Source of the DNA: Halomicronema sp. | GTDB taxonomy: Bacteria > Cyanobacteriota > Cyanobacteriia > Cyanobacteriales > Oscillatoriaceae | Direction of reading: 5' to 3' | Assembly (NCBI GenBank): GCA_036704045.1 | Contig: DATNQM010000011.1 | Span: 1-56,835 of the forward strand | DNA length: 56,835 nt | Shown: positions 10,208-20,019 of the stretch, piece by piece | Layout of the letters: every line of letters begins with the position of its first letter | How positions within the stretch are numbered: position 1 is the stretch's first letter | Made by a program: the position numbers and the translations under genes | Notes under the pieces: generated by a model | The model's input: only the letters and a program-made list of their open reading frames with translations | Databases searched by the model: none | What the model was told of the DNA's origin: nothing

Positions 10208-10918
10208 TTAACGATTTCGCTGCAAGGCAAGCTGCTTTTCTGCTTCTTTGAGGTTATTTTGAGCTTCTACAAAGTTGGGTTCAATTTTAAGGGCTTGTTG
10301 GAATTCTGCAATAGCTTCCTCAAATTTTTCTTGTTTAACAAGCACCATTCCGAGATTGTTGTAAGCGAAGGCATTTTGAGGATCAAGAGAAATAGCTTGC
10401 CGTAAGCTACTGATAGCTTCATCGAGTTTTTCTTGAGCACGCAATGCCATTCCTAGATCGATATAAGCACGGACATTTTCAGGCTCAAGGGAAATAGCTT
10501 GCCGATGGTTGCTAATCGCTTCATCAAGTTTTCCTTGCTGATATAGCGCCACTCCCAAATAGTTGTAAGTTGGAGAATATTTAGGATCGAGTAAAATAGC
10601 TTGCTGGTAGTTGCTAATAGCTTCATCGAGTTTTCCTTGCTGTGATAACACAATTCCCAGATTACTGTAAGCTACCGAATTTTTAGGATATAGTTTAATA
10701 GCCTCTCTCAAAATTTGTTCAGCTTGAGAAACGTTACCGAGATTGTAGGCATCATAGGCTTGATTTATTAGTTCCTCAATAGTTTGAGATACTGCTACTC
10801 CTGATGTAGCGATAACTGACAGACTTAACACTAAAGCAAATAATTGGCTATAACTTTTTGTTTTGCTAGATTTTTGTTTAGAAGGATAGAATAGTTTTTT
10901 CATGGAAACGCCTACCAT
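10208..10918 (-). CDS. secreted tetratricopeptide-repeat protein
   Basis: Signal-peptide-like N-terminus followed by roughly five 34-aa TPR units (AYxNLGxxLxxQGKLDEAIxxYxQAIxLDP repeated). Confidence 0.8.
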   Translation of the reverse strand: MVGVSMKKLFYPSKQKSSKTKSYSQLFALVLSLSVIATSGVAVSQTIEELINQAYDAYNLGNVSQAEQILREAIKLYPKNSVAYSNLGIVLSQQGKLDEAISNYQQAILLDPKYSPTYNYLGVALYQQGKLDEAISNHRQAISLEPENVRAYIDLGMALRAQEKLDEAISSLRQAISLDPQNAFAYNNLGMVLVKQEKFEEAIAEFQQALKIEPNFVEAQNNLKEAEKQLALQRNR

Positions 10919-11046
10919 AGTTTAAATGATTATGCCGGCCTAAAATCTAATTTTAATTATTTTAAATTGAGTTAAGTGCGATTATAAAAGCTGGTAATAT
11001 CGGCCTAAGAAAAAGGCCGATTTTAAAAAACCCAGCCTCAAAAACC

Positions 11047-12993
11047 TTATCTTTTTCCAGCAACTTGTTGAGAATTTAACCTCTCTGGTAAACTTTCCCA
11101 AAAAGGCTTTTCTACCCCATCACGGCGCGTATTTGTGGCACAGTGTGTATTTCCCCGCAATTCTTGATAATATCGGTCATTCAAAAAATACACAGTTAAA
11201 GCACTCGCAGCCACCCGCCGACGAAATTCTTCCTGAGTAAAATCTTTGCCATTAATAATAGCCCCACGAGGATTAGAAACCATTAACCGGCCATTAACCA
11301 CCACCGAATTTACCATATTCGGCCACCAAGAAGACCCACCAAAATCAAACATCGCTGGAACACGAATAATCTGATCATTGGTAAGATTAAATTCTCGCTT
11401 TACTTTCTCTTCAATAGCATTAATATTTTTTGCTTGCAGACGCAAATTATACTCAATTAGGTTTTTGTTTTGGAGGGCAGAACTAACTGTTGTTTGACTA
11501 CTTAAACCACGATTAATCAATTCATTTTTATGACCTTTTTTATCCAAGCTTTTTAACAGCTTAACTCCTTCTTCTGGACTAACAATCATCATTAAAGGTT
11601 TACCTGAAGGTGTAGGAATAAAACTAATAATTTCATCAACGTGACGAATGGCTAACCAAGAAGTATCAATATCAAGGGGTGGCCCTTGAATTTCTTGGGC
11701 TTTTAGAAAGTCTATAACGTCTGGATGAAAAGCAACACTGCCGGCATTTCCGTAATAAATTCTTCCTAAAGAATATCCGGGAATAGGAGGAGTAACTTCT
11801 AAATTTCCAAACCAATCTGTCCACTGATTAAGGGCATCTAAACGACGTGGTTTACCAACTTGAAACCACCCGAAATCTTTACTTAAAAGTGAACGAGGAT
11901 AAAAATCAGAAGCTTGTGGGCGTAGTCCATTTAAAACCACATTAAATTCCCTCATTTTTCCATCTTTTGGAAACTGTACATAACCGATTTCCATTGTGTC
12001 TTGTTTCCAAGTTGTTCCACCGGGAACGACATTAACTTTTGCGCCGGTGGGTGTAATACCGGCCCTGAGTTGGGAAACAAATTCGCGGTTCGCCATACCT
12101 ACATCACTAACATAAAGTTCCTTAACTTTTGCAGTATTAGGTACCATTAACCAAGGAGAAACTCGCATTTCTATAGTATCTTGAGAAACAATTTTATTTT
12201 TTTCTTTGGCAACTGCTTGCAGAGTAACCAAACCGTTCCAGTTACGGTTAGCAAATTGTTTAGCTTCTACGCCTAAAATAAGTTGTTTGGTGTAGGGAAG
12301 TGGTTGGGAACCATCCAGGGTAACGGGAACCCAGCCGCGTGTTGTTTTTTGAAAAACATTAATATAAGGACGGGATTTTGGATCAGCAATTAATGTAACA
12401 ATATTTTTTTGAAATTGTGGTGCAAGTTGGAGGGTAATTTTAGATAAATCTTCTTCATCTTTAGGGCCGTTTACTATTCTATCTTGCCAATCTGGCCGGC
12501 CTTTTTTATCATCATCATCCATGTTAAAAAGGATAAAGGGGCCGGTTTGCCATGTCCAAGTTTTGGTGTCTGTAAAATCGTTATCATCAATTTTGCCATC
12601 ACGGTTGCTGTCGCCAACAAGGGCAAAGTTTTTAGGTTGGATGCGTTGTTTTTCTTGGGTGGGGGTTCGATAGGGTTGGAGGGCGTTTTTTGATGTTGGG
12701 ATGCTGGTGTATTTGGCATAGTCAGCCGCTGTTATGCAACGGTTTTGTGGGATGCCGATTTTGGGGGAAAGGGTTACGCAGGTGGTGGGTGGGGTAACGG
12801 AAAGGGGAGTGTCGGAAAATTCCATACCGGCAAGGGTACCAAAAGCGGTGGTGAGGGCGATCAGAAACCCGCGAAGGTTTTGCCGTAAATTACGGGTGGG
12901 AGGGAGTTTTGGGGGTTGGGGAAATTTGCTTGCATAGATTGGCACGAGGGTGCGGGTTGGGGGTAGAATTGCTTGGGGCCATTGCCGTTGCAT
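11047..12993 (-). CDS. protein-arginine deiminase (vertebrate-type PAD family) homologue with a predicted secretion signal
   Basis: The C-terminal catalytic block aligns by eye with human PAD4: HVDEIISFIP vs HVDEFLSFVP, WPNMVN vs FPNMVN, and RGNTHCATNTRRDGVEKPF vs HGEVHCGTNVRRKPF (catalytic Cys). Asp-rich Ca-site-like segments (DSNRDGKIDDNDFTD, DDDDKKGRPDW) and an Arg-flanked hydrophobic segment (LRGFLIALTTAFGTLAG) ~40 aa into the ORF are also present. Confidence 0.8.
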   Translation of the reverse strand: MQRQWPQAILPPTRTLVPIYASKFPQPPKLPPTRNLRQNLRGFLIALTTAFGTLAGMEFSDTPLSVTPPTTCVTLSPKIGIPQNRCITAADYAKYTSIPTSKNALQPYRTPTQEKQRIQPKNFALVGDSNRDGKIDDNDFTDTKTWTWQTGPFILFNMDDDDKKGRPDWQDRIVNGPKDEEDLSKITLQLAPQFQKNIVTLIADPKSRPYINVFQKTTRGWVPVTLDGSQPLPYTKQLILGVEAKQFANRNWNGLVTLQAVAKEKNKIVSQDTIEMRVSPWLMVPNTAKVKELYVSDVGMANREFVSQLRAGITPTGAKVNVVPGGTTWKQDTMEIGYVQFPKDGKMREFNVVLNGLRPQASDFYPRSLLSKDFGWFQVGKPRRLDALNQWTDWFGNLEVTPPIPGYSLGRIYYGNAGSVAFHPDVIDFLKAQEIQGPPLDIDTSWLAIRHVDEIISFIPTPSGKPLMMIVSPEEGVKLLKSLDKKGHKNELINRGLSSQTTVSSALQNKNLIEYNLRLQAKNINAIEEKVKREFNLTNDQIIRVPAMFDFGGSSWWPNMVNSVVVNGRLMVSNPRGAIINGKDFTQEEFRRRVAASALTVYFLNDRYYQELRGNTHCATNTRRDGVEKPFWESLPERLNSQQVAGKR

Positions 12994-13647
12994 AGATTGT
13001 CCTCACACACAGATACTCAAGGAGTGAATTTAACTCAATCCTTGGTTAGTTTAGGAGAATTTAGGCCGTTTGTGCTGGGGTTGGGGGCGACAAAGTTTTT
13101 AAAACACCCGCTTCTTTGGATGGGTAAGGTATTGATTGGTTAATAATTGAGTATTGACTTTTTAGGATTTAGATGATATGAAAAAACTGCCTAAGTAAGA
13201 AAATATTTAAGAGCAAAAATGCAAAATTTGTTTTGTGGCTGGCCAAAAACAAGCTTAAAGTTAACTTATGGCGGGGTTAGTTGCCGGTGGGTGTGGTAAT
13301 AAAGGTTTTTTTGAGAAGGTGATGGTAGCTGGATTATGAAGCTTTTAATGGTCATCTTACGCTGTTTAACTACAGTTTTTGCTGTCAGTGGTTAAGCTAT
13401 TTATAGTTGTAATGTTTTCTGGGTTTGTTGTCGGTCGAAAGTTGGCCAGCCAAAAAGGTCTAGCTATTGTAAGTTACAAAAATTTTTTGAAGAAAAATTT
13501 AGATGTTGAGCAAAAATTGTGAATTTGTGTTATTGCACTTGACAATTAGGCCGGCAGAAGCTTTGCAGCAAAAGTCTGTGTCGTAGGTACGACTTGACCG
13601 CTATATTTGCTAAGGGGCTAATAAATTGAAATCATAAAGGTACAAGC

Positions 13648-15108
13648 ATGGTATCCATCCGCGAGTTACACAAACAACTAATCCGTAAAGACCGCTCGGC
13701 TGTTGAAATTACTAAAGAAGCGCTCGAACGTATTGAAAAATTAGAGCCAAAACTCCGCAGTTTCTTGTGTGTGACGGCTGATTTGGCTCTTGAGCAAGCC
13801 CGTCAGGTGGATGCTAAAATTGCTGCGGGCGAAGAAATTGGTATTATGGCAGGAATACCTATTGCAATTAAAGACAATATGTGCACTAAGGGAATCCCAA
13901 CAACTTGTGGTTCTCGAATTTTGGAAAATTTTATACCACCCTATGAGTCTACGGTTTCGCAAAAGCTAATGGATGCTGGTGCGGTAGTTTTGGGTAAGAC
14001 GAATATGGATGAGTTTGCGATGGGTAGTTCTACAGAAACTTCTGCCTATCAACTTACTGCAAATCCTTGGGACTTGGAACGGGTGCCGGGGGGGTCTTCT
14101 GGGGGTTCGGCTGCGGCGGTGGCGGCGAATGAGTGTGTGGTGGCTACGGGTAGTGATACTGGTGGATCAATTCGTCAACCGGCCTCTTTTTGCGGTGTGG
14201 TGGGGATGAAACCTACTTATGGGTTGGTTTCTCGCTATGGCTTGGTGGCTTATGCGTCTTCTTTGGATCAAATTGGGCCCTTTGGCCGGTCGGTAGAGGA
14301 TACGGCGATTATGTTAAGTGCAATGGCCGGTTATGATCCTAAAGATTCGACGAGTTTAAATGTAAAAATTCCTGATTATGCAAAGGCTTTGCAACCAAGT
14401 TTAAGGCCAAAAGGTCAGCGCCGAATAGGGGTAATTCAAGAAACTTTTGGGGCTGGTATTGATCCGGCGGTGGAAAAAGCGGTTACAAAAGCTATTGAAA
14501 AGTTACAAGAGTTAGGGGCAGAAATTCAGGTTGTTTCTTGTCCGCGTTTTCGCTATGGTTTGCCGACTTATTATATTATTGCTCCTTCTGAGGCGTCGGC
14601 AAATTTGGCTCGTTATGATGGGGTTAAATATGGTTTGCGTTCACCGGATGCAGAGAATTTAATTGATATGTATGCTAAGACTCGTGCTGAGGGTTTTGGC
14701 GCTGAAGTGAAGCGGAGGATTATGATTGGAACTTATACTCTTTCTGCTGGTTATTATGATGCGTATTATTTGAAGGCGCAAAAGGTACGGACGCTGATTA
14801 AACAGGATTTTGATAAGGCTTTTGCTCAAGTAGATGTTTTGGTTTGTCCAACGGCACCAACTACGGCTTTTAAGGCTGGTGAAAAGACGGATAATCCCTT
14901 AAGTATGTATTTGTCAGATTTGATGACAATTCCTGTTAATTTGGCTGGGTTGCCTTCTTTGAGTCTGCCATGTGGTTTTGATGAAAATGGGTTGCCAATT
15001 GGGTTACAAATGATTAGCAATGTGTTACAAGAACAGTTGCTTTTTGAGGTGGCTTATGCTTATGAACAAAGTACGGATTGGCATTTCCGTAAGCCTGTTT
15101 TGATGTAG
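13648..15108 (+). CDS. gatA: Asp-tRNA(Asn)/Glu-tRNA(Gln) amidotransferase subunit A
   Basis: Amidase signature [12 protein letters not shown]…[12 protein letters not shown] and GatA length of 486 aa. Confidence 0.95.
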
Positions 15109-15196: not shown

Positions 15197-16060
15197 ATGC
15201 TTAAAATTGTGGTTTGGGCTTTAATGGCGGTTTATAGTTCGGCGTGCTTGTATTTGTGGGTTCGCCAACCAAGTTTTATTTTTTTCCCTTCTAAGGTGAT
15301 AGAAAAAACTCCTGATGCTGTGGGGGTTGTTTATGAGGATGTTTGGGTGGAGGTTGAGAATGGTGAACGTTTGCATGGCTGGTGGTTGCCGGCGAGTTCT
15401 CCTAGTTCTGATGTTTTGTTATATTTGCATGGGAATGGGATTAATATTGGGGGAAATGTAAATCATGCTTATCGATTTTCTCAGTTGGGATTGAATGTTT
15501 TTGTAATAGATTATCGGGGATATGGGCTTAGTGAAGGTGGTTTTCCTACGGAACAAAATGTTTACGAAGATGCTTCGGCTGCTTGGAATTATTTGGTAAA
15601 TAATCGCCGGTTGGCTGGGAAAAAAATTTTTGTTTATGGACATTCTTTGGGGGGGGCAATTGCAATTGAGTTGGCTACTCGTCATCCTGAAGTTGCCGGT
15701 TTAATTATTGAGGGTTCTTTTACTTCTATGCAGGATATGGTGAGTGAAGTTTACCCAGGTTTTGCTATTTTTCCGATTGGTTTGTTGCTGCATCAGCGTT
15801 TTAATTCTATGGAAAAGATTGGGAAATTAAAGATGCCGGTTTTGTTTATTCATGGAACTGCTGATCAGACTGTGCCGGCTTTTATGAGTCAACAGTTATT
15901 TGATTTGGCTAATGAACCAAAGGATTTATATTTTGTTGAGGGCGGGGATCATAATAATTTGGCAACGGTGGCTGGTAAACGTTATTTGGAGATTGTGGGG
16001 AAGTTTATTCGGGATGTCAACAATCGTAAGGTTTCTGCTAATTCTTTTCCTCAGCTTTAG
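15197..16060 (+). CDS. alpha/beta-fold hydrolase with an N-terminal membrane anchor
   Basis: GHSLGG nucleophile elbow, downstream Asp/His (HGTADQTVP, GGDHNN), and an N-terminal hydrophobic helix. Confidence 0.8.
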   Translation: MLKIVVWALMAVYSSACLYLWVRQPSFIFFPSKVIEKTPDAVGVVYEDVWVEVENGERLHGWWLPASSPSSDVLLYLHGNGINIGGNVNHAYRFSQLGLNVFVIDYRGYGLSEGGFPTEQNVYEDASAAWNYLVNNRRLAGKKIFVYGHSLGGAIAIELATRHPEVAGLIIEGSFTSMQDMVSEVYPGFAIFPIGLLLHQRFNSMEKIGKLKMPVLFIHGTADQTVPAFMSQQLFDLANEPKDLYFVEGGDHNNLATVAGKRYLEIVGKFIRDVNNRKVSANSFPQL

Positions 16061-16347: not shown

Positions 16348-19300
16348 ATGTCTTTTGTGGGCTTACATATTCATAGCGATTATAGTTTGCTGGATGGGGC
16401 AAGTCAATTACCGCAATTAATTGATAGGGCTGTGGAATTGGATATGCCAGCAATTGCTCTTACAGATCACGGGGTTATGTATGGGGCAATTGAGTTAATT
16501 AAAGTGTGTCGTAGTAAAAATATTAAGCCGATTATTGGTAATGAAATGTATGTAGAAAATACTACACTTATTACAACGAAAAAAGGCAAAAAAGGGCCCC
16601 ATCATCAGGTGGTTTTAGCAAAGAATACTCAAGGTTACAAAAACTTGGTGAAGCTGACAACAAAGGCTCATTTAGAAGGTATGCAAGGGTCGGGTATTTT
16701 TCAGCGTCCTTGTATTAAAAAAGATTGGCTTGAGACATACCATGAGGGGTTAATTGTGACGAGTGGTTGTTTAGCCGGTGAGGTGCCGAGATTGCTTTTG
16801 CGTGAACAACTAGATGAGGCAAAAAATGTCGCCAAGTGGTATAAAAACTTGTTTGGGGATGATTATTATTTAGAAATTCAAGATCATGGCAATTGGGAAG
16901 ACAGAATTGTTAATGTAGGAATTGTAAAAATTGCCAAAGAGTTGAATATTAAAGTCGTTGCAACGAATGATTCTCACTTTACTTATTGTACTGATGTAGA
17001 GGCCCATGATGCGTTGCTTTGTGTTCAAACTCAGCAACTTATTTTTGATGAAAAACGGATGCGTTATAGCGGCACAGAGTATCTAAAATCTGCCGAAGAA
17101 ATGGCACAGTTATTCCGCGATCATTTGACCGATGATGTTATTAAAGAGGCGATTGAAAATACCTTAGAAGTGGCAGATAAGGTAACGAAGTATGACCTTT
17201 TTAATGAGCCTCGGTTGCCTAATTATCCTATTCCTTCTGGTTATACGGCAGATACTTATGTGGAGGAGGAAACTTGGAAGGGATTAATGGAAAGGTTAAA
17301 TGCTAAACAGAAAAGTGAAATTAAAACCGAATATAAGGAACGGCTGGAATATGAGTTAAAAATGATTCAAAAAATGGGTTTTTCGACTTATTTTTTGGTG
17401 GTATGGGATTATATTAAATTTGCGAGAGAGCAGGGTATTCCTGTGGGCCCTGGACGGGGTTCGGCGGCGGGTTCTTTGGTGGCGTATGCGTTAAGAATTA
17501 CGAATATTGATCCGGTGCATCATGGGTTATTATTTGAACGGTTTTTGAATCCAGAACGTAAGTCTATGCCGGATATTGATACAGATTTTTGTATTGAACG
17601 GCGGGATGAGGTTATTGATTATGTTGCTGATAAGTATGGGAAAGATCGTGTCGCGCAAATTATTACTTTTAACCGCATGACTTCTAAGGCGGTTTTAAAG
17701 GATGTGGCGAGGGTTTTAGGTATTCCTTATTCCGAGTCGGATAGAATGGCGAAAATGATTCCGGTGGCGCGAGGAAAACCGGAAAAATTAAAGAATATGA
17801 TTTCGGATAGTACGCCGGAACCGGAGTTTAAAACGACTTATGAAACTAAAGATTATGAGATAAAAGATGCCGGTGGAAATACAGTTGCAACGGTGACGGC
17901 GCGACAATGGATTGATATGGCACTCCGCATTGAGGGAACGAATAAAACCTATGGGGTTCATGCGGCGGGAGTGGTGATTTCTGCTGATCCTTTGGATGAA
18001 ATTGTGCCGCTACAAAAGAATAATGAGGGGGCGGTTATTACTCAGTATTTTATGGAGGATTTGGAGTCTTTGGGTTTGCTGAAAATGGATTTTTTGGGTC
18101 TGAAAAATTTAACGATGATTCAGAAGACTTTGGAGTTGATTAAGCAGACTCAAAATAAGGATATTGATCCTTATCAATTGCCGGCGGAAGAAAGGAAGTT
18201 TCAGGAAATTGCGGCGAAGGGAAAAACAAATAAAATTCCAGAGGATATTAAGAAAACCTATGCAACTTTAGCTGAGGGAGAGTTGGAGGGTATTTTTCAG
18301 TTGGAGTCATCGGGAATGCGTCAGGTTGTTAGAGATTTGAAGCCTTCTTGTATTGAAGATATTTCTTCTATTTTGGCTTTATACCGGCCTGGGCCTTTGG
18401 ATGCAGGTTTGATTCCTTTGTTTATTAATCGTAAGCATGGGAGAGAGGAAATTAGATACGATCACCAACTTTTAGAACCGATTTTGCAAGAGACGTATGC
18501 TGTTCTTGTTTATCAAGAACAAATTATGAAATTAGCTCAAGATTTGGCGGGATATACGTTAGGTCAAGCTGATTTACTGCGTAGAGCAATGGGGAAAAAG
18601 AAGGCTGATGAAATGAAGAAACAGCGAGAGTTTTTTATTGATGGTGCTACTAAAAATGGCGTACATCAAAAAATTGCTGAAGATTTGTTTGATCAAATGG
18701 TGAAATTTGCTGAATATTGTTTTAACAAATCCCATTCCACCGCCTACGCCTATGTGACCTACCAAACAGCTTATTTAAAGGCTAATTACACTACGGAATA
18801 TATGGCGGCTTTATTGACAGCAAATAGTGGCGACCAAGATAAAATTAAAAAGTATCTTGCCAATTGTCAAAGTATGGGAATTGAAGTTCAACCACCTGAT
18901 ATTAATCGCTCTCAAGTGGAGTTTACACCGTTAGATAAGAAAATTTTGTTTGGTCTTTCGGCAATTAAAACAGTAGGAGAAGAGGCGATTAAGTGTATTT
19001 TGCGCGCTAGAGAAAAAGATGGGCCTTTTAAATCTTTGCCGGATTTGTGTCAGCGAATTGATTTACGGGCTGTCAATACTCGGCCTTTAGAATCGTTAAT
19101 TAAATGTGGGGCTTTGGATAATATTAATCCCAATCGTAAACAATTAATGGAAGATTTGGATTTAGTAATTAAATGGGCGCAAAAAAAAGATAAAGACCGC
19201 GAAAGTGGACAAACTAATTTGTTTGATTTGCTTGGAGTGGCCGGTGATAAAAACGGCTTTGAAGAAGCGCCAAAAGGCAAGAAAGTTGATGATTTTCCTC

Positions 19301-20019
19301 AGAAAGAAAAATTACAATTTGAGAAAGAACTGCTGGGTTTATATGTGTCTGCTCATCCACTAAAGAATGCTGTGGCGATGGCAAAAAATCTTGATCCTGC
19401 ACCAATAACTCTTAGCGAATTGCAAGACAAAAAAAAGAAGAATAAAGTTAATGTGATTGTGTTGCTGACAGAGGTAAAAAAAATAACAACTAAAAAAGAT
19501 AATAGGCAAATGGCTTTTCTACAAATGGAAGATTTAGAAGGCCAAGCTGAGGCGGTAGTTTTTCCTGATACTTACGAGCAAATTAAGGATTTGCTTTTGC
19601 TAGAACAGCCTTTAATTGTTTCAGGAAAAGTGGAAATTAAGGAGGATAAGGCGCAAATTATTGTTGATAAAGTAGAGGAGGTTAAGGATGAGCCACTTAT
19701 GGCTATATATGAAGTAGCATCCCTACCTATTGAAGAGGAAGAAGAGTTAGAAAAAAATGTTAATATTGTGGTATTAGAACTCACGCCGCAAGAAGTACAA
19801 AATGTGGAAAAAATGGAAAATTTAAAAGTTATTTTTGGGGATTATACTGGCAATGGAAATAGTGTAAAAGTGCCGGTGGTTGCTATGATTGTTTCAGACG
19901 AACAACAGCGTTTTATTGAGTTTGGCTTAAACTATCGTGTACAGCAATATGATGAATTTGTGAGCCGATTAAAAGATTTGGGTTTTAAGGCGAATGTTTC
20001 TGCACTTGTGGCTGTATAA
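16348..20019 (+). CDS. dnaE: DNA polymerase III alpha subunit, contiguous (not intein-split)
   Basis: PHP domain ([13 protein letters not shown]), polymerase core, and a C-terminal OB region. There is no intein-like insertion, and a Lys-rich low-complexity stretch lies near the C-terminus. Confidence 0.95.

Follow-up and report, generated by a model that had tools for sequence, protein, structure and literature searches.

A two-domain protein-arginine deiminase gene from a filamentous cyanobacterium and its probable export from the cytoplasm

A complete deiminase gene

We analyzed a 56,835-nucleotide stretch of Halomicronema sp. DNA (contig DATNQM010000011.1, positions 1 to 56,835), referred to here as the window. 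In the list of open reading frames (ORFs), an ATG-to-stop frame fills positions 11047 to 12993 of the minus strand exactly. Its product is 100% identical to a protein (P0001) that NCBI names [quoted passage not shown], and a scan of the window for further protein-arginine deiminase (PAD)-like sequences returned none besides this ORF. The gene and its conserved domains are as follows.

11047..12993, minus strand: complete PAD gene, 648 amino acids plus stop
12217..12621, minus strand: PAD_M (middle, Ig-like) domain, residues 125-259 (Pfam PF08527, 31.0 bits, E = 2.4e-7)
12577-12612, minus strand: DxNxDGxID loop within PAD_M, residues 128-139
12448-12525, minus strand: acidic cluster of calcium sites 3-5 within PAD_M, residues 157-182, from alignment to the PAD4 ligands
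11095..12189, minus strand: PAD_C catalytic domain, residues 269-633 (Pfam PAD, PF03068, 228.1 bits, E = 2.3e-67, profile positions 2-395 of 395)

The Pfam cutoffs for these families are 25 bits for PAD and 24.8 bits for PAD_M. An NCBIfam search with the same protein produced no match. Among proteins of solved structure, human PAD4 is the closest match, with an E value of 5e-58 across query residues 119-636. An earlier note on this DNA had aligned the C-terminal ~200 amino acids with mammalian PADs; the homology is real, but it covers about 520 residues and takes in PAD_M as well as PAD_C. Similarity of this extent is far beyond chance, and on these matches we regard the ORF as a real gene for a calcium-type PAD in a filamentous cyanobacterium. 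The gene adds no new family; its bacterial branch has already been described and annotated. PADs occur in 0.76% of bacterial species, compared with 11% in cyanobacteria (PMC8826395), which agrees with the earlier remark that they are rare in bacteria and enriched in this phylum; the wider taxonomic picture rests on a genome scan.

An intact catalytic tetrad and four of five calcium sites

Residues were mapped onto PAD4 in a MAFFT alignment, in which the catalytic tetrad (D332, H451, D453, and C618) is intact.

11998-12000, minus strand: D332, aligned to PAD4 D350
11635-11643, minus strand: H451 and D453, aligned to PAD4 H471/D473
11140-11142, minus strand: C618, aligned to PAD4 C645

The motifs named in the earlier note are all present, namely IRHVDEIISFIP at residues 449-460, GNTHCATNTRRD at residues 614-625, and the acidic clusters DSNRDGKIDDND (128-139) and NMDDDDKKGRPDWQDRIVNGPKDEED (157-182). 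With the Asp/His/Asp/Cys positions conserved against PAD4, the identification of a PAD-family enzyme with its catalytic set stands. The remark that the upstream Asp clusters resemble calcium-binding sites is also borne out: PAD4 residues N153/D155/D157/D165/D168/D176/D179, which form calcium sites 3-5, align with N157/D159/D161/D168/D171/D179/D182. The ligands of calcium site 1 are retained as Q331/E335/E399, the PAD4 Asp388 switch residue is D373, and W347 and R372 are kept along with the tetrad and the ligands of sites 1 and 3-5, both here and in the orthologues nearest to this protein.

Calcium site 2 is absent from the window protein, in which PAD4 E351/D369/S370/N373 are replaced in the alignment by T333/N355/G356/P359; Clade Ai and animal sequences read E-D-S-(N/D) at these positions. 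The position of Arg374, a residue that contacts the substrate backbone in PAD4, is occupied by Gln. Because neither the site 2 ligands nor Arg374 are kept, calcium control and substrate binding may differ from those of the animal enzymes. No Pfam match to PAD_N was obtained for the window protein at E <= 0.1, and the PAD4 alignment begins only at PAD4 residue 111.

The AlphaFold (AF2) model is confident over the PAD_M/PAD_C body, with a beta-sandwich that aligns to the PAD4 middle domain. For residues 1-120, modelled as a single helix and a linker, pLDDT is under 50, and confidence is also low in two active-site loops, 327-334 and 356-371. A Foldseek search of the PDB with the model retrieved PAD4/PAD3/PAD1/PAD2 at a TM score of about 0.67 and a probability of 1.0.

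An exported protein could instead act on another guanidino substrate, such as free arginine, small peptides, or arginine-containing metabolites, or serve mainly as a noncatalytic binder. Loss of Arg374 and of the entire calcium site 2 would fit such a role, as would the retention of catalytically degenerate homologues: at least one catalytic residue has been lost in 98 of the 120 nearest homologues and at 71 of 80 species-representative loci, which indicates that the clade tolerates loss of activity. Literature searches also found no assayed member of the Oscillatoriales-type clade to which the window protein belongs. We nevertheless consider this reading unlikely. Selection for catalysis is implied by the retention, here and in the closest orthologues, of the D-H-D-C tetrad together with W347, R372, and every ligand of calcium sites 1 and 3-5, and the overall fold and active-site architecture in the Foldseek comparison and AF2 model are of the PAD type.

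Translation start and gene neighborhood

The region upstream of the gene was compared with L001, a contig from an 88%-identical relative.

13000..13004, minus strand: GAGGA resembling a Shine-Dalgarno sequence, 6 nt ahead of the ATG at 12993, read from the sequence and identical in L001
12994..13083, minus strand: conserved 5' leader or promoter-proximal block of about 90 nt, near-identical in the window and L001

Upstream of this block the two sequences diverge, with indels. Rfam returned no match over positions 10900-13700, which include the 5' leader, and promoter and terminator scans were uninformative because their counts did not exceed those in shuffled sequence.

From the hydrophobic segment described below, the earlier note had suggested export with an alternative start. 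Reading in frame from codon 1 to Met57, we found a single further ATG, GTG, or TTG, namely the GTG of codon 17, where the 88%-identical relative has GCC. Given that no canonical start codon lies near the segment and that the codon-17 GTG is not conserved, we rejected the alternative start. The conserved GAGGA and ATG and the comparisons given below place the start at 12993, ahead of the hydrophobic segment, and the first 41 residues of the protein therefore make up a basic tail rich in proline.

Synteny is limited to the divergent upstream genes gatA, abhydrolase, and dnaE, which are housekeeping genes. A gene for a TPR protein lies downstream in the window and was considered as a conserved operon partner, but this idea was rejected because the downstream gene differs in every locus (pyrG in L001, OYE in L002, and patX in L003).

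A conserved hydrophobic segment ahead of the PAD body

Three features precede the first Pfam domain.

12871..12993, minus strand: N-terminal tail, residues 1-41, basic (7 K/R, 0 D/E), with 9 Pro
12823..12870, minus strand: hydrophobic segment GFLIALTTAFGTLAGM, residues 42-57, a candidate signal-peptide h-region or short signal-anchor
12634..12822, minus strand: Pro/Ser/Thr-rich linker, residues 58-120, with a conserved (S/T)PLSxxPPxxC motif

The first ~36 residues are a lineage-specific extension, found only in the window protein and P0002 and free of indels relative to L001. Other orthologues begin with MHR(L/F)R at the position of window residue 37 and carry a matching hydrophobic segment at their own residues 6-21. 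In the window protein, RQNLRGFLIALTTAFGTLAG, another of the sequences first noted, spans residues 37-56, and AF2 predicts a single helix over residues 37-54. The segment itself consists of 16 uncharged residues (KD15 1.73), and its best 19-residue Kyte-Doolittle window, at 1.26, falls below the transmembrane threshold. The 7 K/R and 0 D/E before it are followed by E58 and D61.

Across codons 37-59 of nine orthologues, differences at codon positions 1, 2, and 3 were 0.285, 0.158, and 0.518 (third > first > second), and four of the five substitutions separating the segment from that of L001 are synonymous. This pattern shows that the segment is translated and under purifying selection. Of the 120 closest homologues, all those of full length carry such a segment. 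Its first description as a possible export signal is thus upheld to the extent that it is genuine, conserved, translated, and consistent with export.

These data also bear on a start at Met57, which would make the enzyme cytoplasmic and the upstream codons an artefact of ORF extension. Met57 is kept in all short-form orthologues, within a GME[LF] motif, and a hydrophobic N terminus is missing from the characterized Cyanothece enzyme and the animal PADs, which are cytoplasmic. The upstream codons, however, change as translated sequence does, which led us to reject this start; the hydrophobic pattern is kept clade-wide at the protein level, even in long forms that have no Met after the segment, and the conserved GAGGA lies ahead of the ATG at 12993. 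A cytoplasmic enzyme starting at Met57 is therefore very improbable.

Around Met57, the window protein reads L-A-G|M-E and its orthologues (V/L)-x-(G/S)|M-E, a site that appears by eye to be compatible with signal peptidase I. The linker contains two of the protein's three cysteines, C72 and C86 (the third is the catalytic C618), and this pair is kept in all short-form orthologues. Two other export signals were considered and rejected. There is no Tat motif, (S/T)-R-R-x-F-L-K, ahead of the h-region, the relevant stretch (TRNLRQNLRGFLIAL) having no adjacent arginines; a related subgroup does bear W(R/Q)RR. Nor does the h-region end in a lipobox, L-[AS]-[GA]-C, as the first cysteine (C72) lies 15 residues past the segment in the context P-T-T-C; lipoboxes are present in several distant relatives. 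About half of the non-animal PAD representatives have Sec- or lipoprotein-type N termini, which are absent from the three-domain Clade Ai and animal enzymes.

Proposed location and activity

Given that the segment is translated, under purifying selection, and universal in full-length relatives, that orthologues start at it, and that a cysteine pair follows, we consider export or membrane anchoring of the window protein to be well supported by sequence comparison. The enzyme would then probably work outside the cytoplasm. Counting against export is the length of the n-region, 41 residues, which would be unusual in a Sec signal.

The explanation we favor, and hold to be reasonably probable, is that the gene encodes a calcium-binding, two-domain (PAD_M plus PAD_C) peptidyl-arginine deiminase of the Oscillatoriales-type clade that is exported by Sec, is then cleaved or anchored, and citrullinates outside the cytoplasm. 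The basic, proline-rich tail would remain in the cytoplasm while residues 42-57 direct the rest of the chain into the Sec pathway and across a membrane, either cytoplasmic or thylakoid. Cleavage could follow at the conserved site, (V/L)-x-(G/S)|M-E, or the segment could stay in place and anchor the protein in the membrane. The PAD_M-PAD_C body would sit on a flexible linker of Pro, Ser, and Thr in which C72 and C86 probably form a disulfide, and calcium sites 1 and 3-5 would be filled because calcium is plentiful outside the cytoplasm. The Asp332/His451/Asp453/Cys618 center would convert arginine side chains to citrulline and ammonia, and its targets may be envelope, periplasmic or lumenal, or external proteins or peptides.

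In a variant of this explanation, differing in whether the enzyme is tethered or soluble, the segment is an uncleaved signal-anchor, so that a type II membrane protein keeps its tail in the cytoplasm and its PAD body outside the plasma or thylakoid membrane on the linker. A long basic tail ahead of the segment obeys the positive-inside rule, and AF2 draws helix 37-54 in one piece. In an independent subgroup that retains the catalytic Cys (P0019, P0025, P0037, P0059, P0070, and P0080), a basic tail of ~40 amino acids is likewise conserved ahead of the segment, suggesting that the tail stays on the protein and is not discarded. Against this, the 16 uncharged residues between R41 and E58, with their 19-residue value of 1.26, would make a short, weak span, and the small-residue site compatible with signal peptidase I is kept in orthologues. 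We regard permanent anchoring as possible but distinctly the less probable outcome.

If two-domain forms are exported, protein citrullination in bacteria would take place mostly in the envelope or outside the cell; the sole tested cyanobacterial PAD is a cytoplasmic-looking three-domain form. Export would also bear on the origin of the intracellular, calcium-switched animal enzymes, which would have gained PAD_N and calcium site 2 and lost the export signal. As a catalytically intact representative, the window gene is a convenient one for testing whether two-domain PADs are exported.

More surprising, though incidental here, is the loss of the catalytic Cys from most close relatives, and the radiation of these Cys-less paralogues merits separate study. 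We speculate, while judging it improbable as a whole, that filamentous cyanobacteria possess an undescribed extracytoplasmic citrullination system. An exported, constitutively calcium-loaded two-domain PAD would modify envelope, sheath, pilus, or foreign cationic proteins, or scavenge their nitrogen, and the membrane-anchored Cys-less paralogues, which are far more widespread, would act, by analogy with mammalian PADI6, as noncatalytic arginine- or citrulline-binding partners. A search of the literature on export, pseudoenzymes, and later cyanoPADI work found nothing beyond Cummings et al.

Relation to known deiminases

In a neighbor-joining (NJ) tree, the window protein fell within a two-domain, Oscillatoriales-type clade in 200 of 200 bootstraps, and animals, Clade Ai, and Limnoraphis formed a separate group (179/200). 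This topology places it outside the lineage from which the animal enzymes arose. It is 29.8% identical to human PAD4 and 29.8% identical to the enzyme of Cyanothece 8801, whereas those two share 45% identity. The label "vertebrate-type" given in the earlier note must therefore be dropped, as these identities of about 30%, the missing PAD_N and site 2 ligands, and the separate two-domain clade all speak against it.

The published trees of Cummings et al. (2021) contain the same grouping, with Oscillatoria sp. PCC 10802, Trichodesmium erythraeum, Arthrospira PCC 8005, Lyngbya PCC 8106, Planktothrix, O. nigro-viridis PCC 7112, and PCC 6506 as members. The orthologue of Oscillatoria sp. PCC 10802 is 62% identical to the window protein and shares its upstream gatA linkage, and the Arthrospira protein is 48% identical. 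The clade and the window protein have a common architecture of hydrophobic N terminus, linker, PAD_M, and PAD_C. The window protein and P0002 differ from the rest in their extra extension of ~36 residues, and the window protein differs from most members in keeping the full catalytic tetrad.

The enzyme of Cyanothece sp. PCC 8801 (cyanoPADI), a three-domain Clade Ai form, is the only cyanobacterial PAD that has been assayed; it is active, is strictly calcium dependent, and citrullinates proteins (PMC8826395). By analogy with this 30%-identical enzyme, we propose that the window protein is also active. The two share PAD_M and PAD_C, identical catalytic residues, the ligands of calcium sites 1 and 3-5, and the D388 equivalent. 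Unlike the window protein, cyanoPADI has a PAD_N region, an intact calcium site 2 (WMQDEIE...VVLDSPRNRG), and Arg374, and it begins with MSRRLDIRRIEGR, without a hydrophobic N terminus.

Human PAD4 and PAD2 (1WD8, 1WDA, and 4N2x) are the best sequence and fold matches among solved structures. PAD4 Asp350/His471/Asp473/Cys645 and the ligands of calcium sites 1 and 3-5 are identical residues in the window protein, which differs from PAD4 in the absence of PAD_N and calcium site 2, the change of Arg374 to Gln, and an additional N-terminal export or anchor segment. The human PAD enzymes are cytosolic or nuclear. The PPAD of Porphyromonas gingivalis is secreted and calcium independent. It is of another family, an extended agmatine-deiminase type that has no PAD_M and is phyletically distinct from PADIs (PMC8826395), and it thus offers a functional analogy only, that of a bacterial enzyme deiminating peptidyl-arginine outside the cytoplasm (PMC8826395).

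A two-domain protein-arginine deiminase gene with intact catalytic residues

The protein-arginine deiminase (PAD) gene is a 648-codon open reading frame, ATG to stop, at 11047..12993 on the minus strand, and we found no second PAD-like sequence elsewhere in the window. Base composition near the gene is unremarkable. The earlier note had identified a PAD homologue from several motifs, and all of these were present in the translated frame, together with Pfam matches to the middle (PAD_M) and catalytic domains.

Features of the 648-residue window protein
Residues 37-56, n-region and hydrophobic stretch, RQNLRGFLIALTTAFGTLAG
Residues 125-259, PAD_M (PF08527), 31 bits, cut-off 24.8
Residues 128-139 and 157-182, two acidic clusters
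Residues 269-633, PAD (PF03068), 228 bits, cut-off 25
Residues 449-460, catalytic-domain motif, IRHVDEIISFIP
Residues 614-625, terminal Cys motif, GNTHCATNTRRD

When all PDB sequences were searched, the sole matches were mammalian PAD1-4 and PAD6, the best being PAD4 (5e-58; query residues 119-636 against PAD4 residues 111-663). An AlphaFold2 model built from 25 relatives reached a mean pLDDT of 70.8; its PAD_M/PAD_C body was confident, and residues 1-120 fell below 50. Foldseek matched the model to PAD4, PAD3, PAD1 and PAD2 at TM ~0.67 (probability 1.0). The model loops of low confidence at 327-334 and 356-371 are those bearing Ca1/Ca2 and active-site residues.

PAD4 numbering was transferred through a HMMER alignment and a MAFFT alignment with 120 homologues, and then checked on the DNA. 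The catalytic tetrad was complete, PAD4 W347 and R372 were likewise kept, and the departures fell at the Ca2 site and at R374.

PAD4 residues and their counterparts in the window protein
Catalytic: D350/H471/D473/C645, D332/H451/D453/C618, all kept
Ca1 ligands: Q349/E353/E411, Q331/E335/E399
Ca3-5 ligands: N153/D155/D157/D165/D168/D176/D179, N157/D159/D161/D168/D171/D179/D182
Switch residue: D388, D373
Ca2 ligands: E351/D369/S370/N373, T333/N355/G356/P359, not kept
R374, Q360

The absence of the Ca2 site and of Arg374, which we take to be a substrate-backbone binding residue in PAD4, argues that calcium control and substrate-backbone binding would differ from those of PAD4. The loop DSNRDGKIDDND (residues 128-139) has EF-hand-like spacing and shows the Asp-to-Asn and Glu-to-Asp variants reported by Cummings et al. 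for calcium site 6, in their numbering, of two-domain PADs (PMC8826395).

The start codon lies upstream of a conserved hydrophobic segment

On the minus strand, a GAGGA motif with a 6-nt spacer precedes the ATG at 12993, and both are nearly identical in L001, the contig encoding an 88%-identical relative, as is the leader of ~90 nt (12994-13083, minus strand). Beyond this leader the upstream sequence diverges with indels, while downstream of the ATG there are none. The leader, which is more conserved between the two contigs than the first 30 codons, belongs to a 654-bp intergenic region (12994-13647); it matched no Rfam family and could be a promoter or regulatory leader.

The earlier note had suggested export with an alternative start. 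A start immediately ahead of the segment was not supported, because codon 17 (GTG) is the sole other ATG, GTG or TTG before Met57 and reads GCC in L001, and because the ATG and GAGGA are conserved. We also examined a start beyond the segment, at Met57, which the same note had said would refute its reading. Such a start is very unlikely, given that four of the five substitutions relative to L001 in codons 37-57 are synonymous and that mean pairwise differences at codon positions 1/2/3 of the segment across nine orthologues are 0.285/0.158/0.518; these patterns indicate that the segment is translated.

The other short-form orthologues (P0003-P0013, L005-L010) open with MHR(L/F)R where residue 37 of the window protein lies and lead directly into the segment, and the first ~36 residues of the window protein are therefore a lineage-specific extension. 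Residues 1-41 contain seven K/R, no D/E and nine Pro. In short-form orthologues the segment is followed by (V/L)-x-(G/S)-M-E-x-x-x-(S/T)-P-L-S-x-x-P-P-x-x-C and then a second conserved Cys; apart from the catalytic C618, C72 and C86 are the window protein's only cysteines.

The segment comprises 16 uncharged residues, and the highest Kyte-Doolittle mean over a 19-residue window is 1.26; these values fit the h-region of a signal peptide better than they fit a complete membrane span. The basic tail, being long, instead fits a signal-anchor. Motif inspection of the N-terminus found no Tat motif and no lipobox. A hydrophobic segment occurs at the N-terminus of all full-length proteins among the 120 closest homologues, and a strong one in 50 of the 105 non-animal-type representatives with an initial Met; in many of these 50 it ends in a recognisable Sec-type (AxA) or lipoprotein-type (L-x-[AG]-C) site. 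Three-domain cyanobacterial and animal PADs are without such an N-terminus. Taken together, the translation and conservation of the segment, the start upstream of it and this wider-family precedent make export or membrane anchoring, and hence an extracytoplasmic location, the best reading, a well-supported though unproven one.

Among distant bacterial two-domain PADs (50%-identity representatives P0122-P0177), many have an N-terminus of lipoprotein type (e.g., LIATGC, LLSLAACG, LILAGC) or Sec type (e.g., TFAQV, LSAQA), and some PAD domains form the C-terminal end of giant proteins of 1,200-2,860 aa. A long-form subgroup keeping D-H-D-C (P0019, P0025, P0027, P0037, P0059, P0070, P0080; locus L050, Zarconia navalis) has a conserved basic tail of ~40 residues ending in W(R/Q)RR, then a weakly hydrophobic Gly/Ala-rich segment; from its sequence, a twin-arginine (Tat) signal looks possible. 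The published Arthrospira PCC 8005 sequence begins mid-segment (MVGIILVPAP), and the open reading frame of Arthrospira platensis PCC 7345 (L071) reaches further upstream, to MGWMRYIAMALVNTLGVVVGIILVPAPHAVAQ; truncated gene models can therefore hide an export signal in this family. We found no mention in the searchable literature of export signals on cyanobacterial PADs.

On the established footing of family membership, intact catalytic and calcium ligands, start codon, and segment translation and conservation, the most likely picture is of a two-domain calcium-binding PAD that would be targeted by the Sec pathway to act outside the cytoplasm. The segment may be cleaved and C72 and C86 may form a disulfide. 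The catalytic body would be active in the periplasm, the thylakoid lumen or the extracellular space, where sites 1 and 3-5 would stay occupied because ambient calcium is high, and its deiminase activity would target arginine side chains in proteins or peptides. We can only speculate about its role: altering the charge of envelope or sheath proteins, neutralising cationic peptides, or scavenging nitrogen through the ammonia released.

Genomic neighbourhood

Genes flanking the PAD gene
10208-10918, minus strand, TPR-repeat gene (236 aa), 128 nt downstream
13648-15108, divergent, gatA, upstream
15197-16060 and 16348-20019, further upstream genes

The divergent upstream gatA is common to four of the genomes with relatives, which supports orthology. 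No conserved gene lies downstream of PAD across the compared loci, where the TPR-repeat gene was not found beside PAD either; its product has its own signal-like N-terminus (KSYSQLFALVLSLSVIATSGVAVSQ). The gene order gatA-abhydrolase-dnaE is shared with Microcoleus. Window GatA is 85-87% identical to Microcoleus and Oscillatoria proteins, despite the label Halomicronema, a cyanobacterium with thin filaments that is placed in the order Nodosilineales; the label of this metagenome-assembled genome may be imprecise.

Most members of the clade have lost catalytic residues

A scan of species-representative genomes found relatives at 396 loci, the best 80 of which all belong to filamentous non-heterocystous cyanobacteria. 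At six of those 80 the relative is a short-form orthologue; the one from Oscillatoria sp. PCC 10802 shows 62% identity. The D-H-D-C tetrad is kept in only nine of the best 80 loci and in 22 of the 120 closest homologues, and is almost universal among more distant representatives. According to Cummings et al., every PAD homologue conserves the full set of catalytic residues (PMC8826395).

The catalytic Cys, and often the His or Asp too, is lost in most clade members (L011-L084; P0009, P0011-P0120), with the tetrad reading DQDS in Microcoleus, GHDS in Planktothrix, DHDD in Trichodesmium/Okeania/Dapis, DHST in Lyngbya/Limnoraphis, ENDS in Kamptonema and DQDA in Arthrospira. All Cys-less members retain the hydrophobic segment at the N-terminus, as well as a ~200-aa helical linker; Microcoleus forms have lost the Ca3-5 ligands as well. 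The searchable literature yielded no mention of catalytic degeneracy in most of this clade, and the pseudo-enzyme radiation around the window PAD is a more novel lead than the gene itself.

Placement among known PADs

PADs are of two kinds (Cummings et al. 2021, PMC8826395): three-domain forms, with PAD_N and calcium sites 2 and 4, in animals and late-diverging cyanobacteria ("Clade Ai"), and two-domain forms in other bacteria and fungi. The Clade Ai enzyme of Cyanothece sp. 8801 was assayed and found active and strictly calcium dependent, and the published trees hold, with 100% support, an Oscillatoriales clade of Arthrospira, Lyngbya, Planktothrix, Trichodesmium, O. nigro-viridis PCC 7112, PCC 6506 and Oscillatoria PCC 10802 (PMC8826395). 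We took the Cyanothece 8801 and further comparison sequences from their supplementary alignment and built a neighbor-joining tree (60 sequences, 501 columns, 200 bootstraps), in which animals, Clade Ai and Limnoraphis formed a separate group (179/200).

The description "vertebrate-type" was not borne out: the window protein lacks the Ca2 site, groups with Arthrospira and other Oscillatoriales proteins in 200/200 bootstraps, and is equally distant from human PAD4 and the Cyanothece 8801 enzyme (29.8% identity to each), which share 45.4% with each other. The earlier observation is thus confirmed, and its interpretation holds in part: a PAD with intact catalytic residues and a hydrophobic segment, without the vertebrate affinity or the alternative start. 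Cyanobacterial PADs and this clade were already published, and the automatic annotation is correct: the protein is 100% identical to the NCBI entry [quoted passage not shown], so the gene was already annotated as a PAD. It is an ordinary member of the known two-domain cyanobacterial clade, with 48.5% identity to the protein from Arthrospira PCC 8005 and a lineage-specific N-terminal tail.
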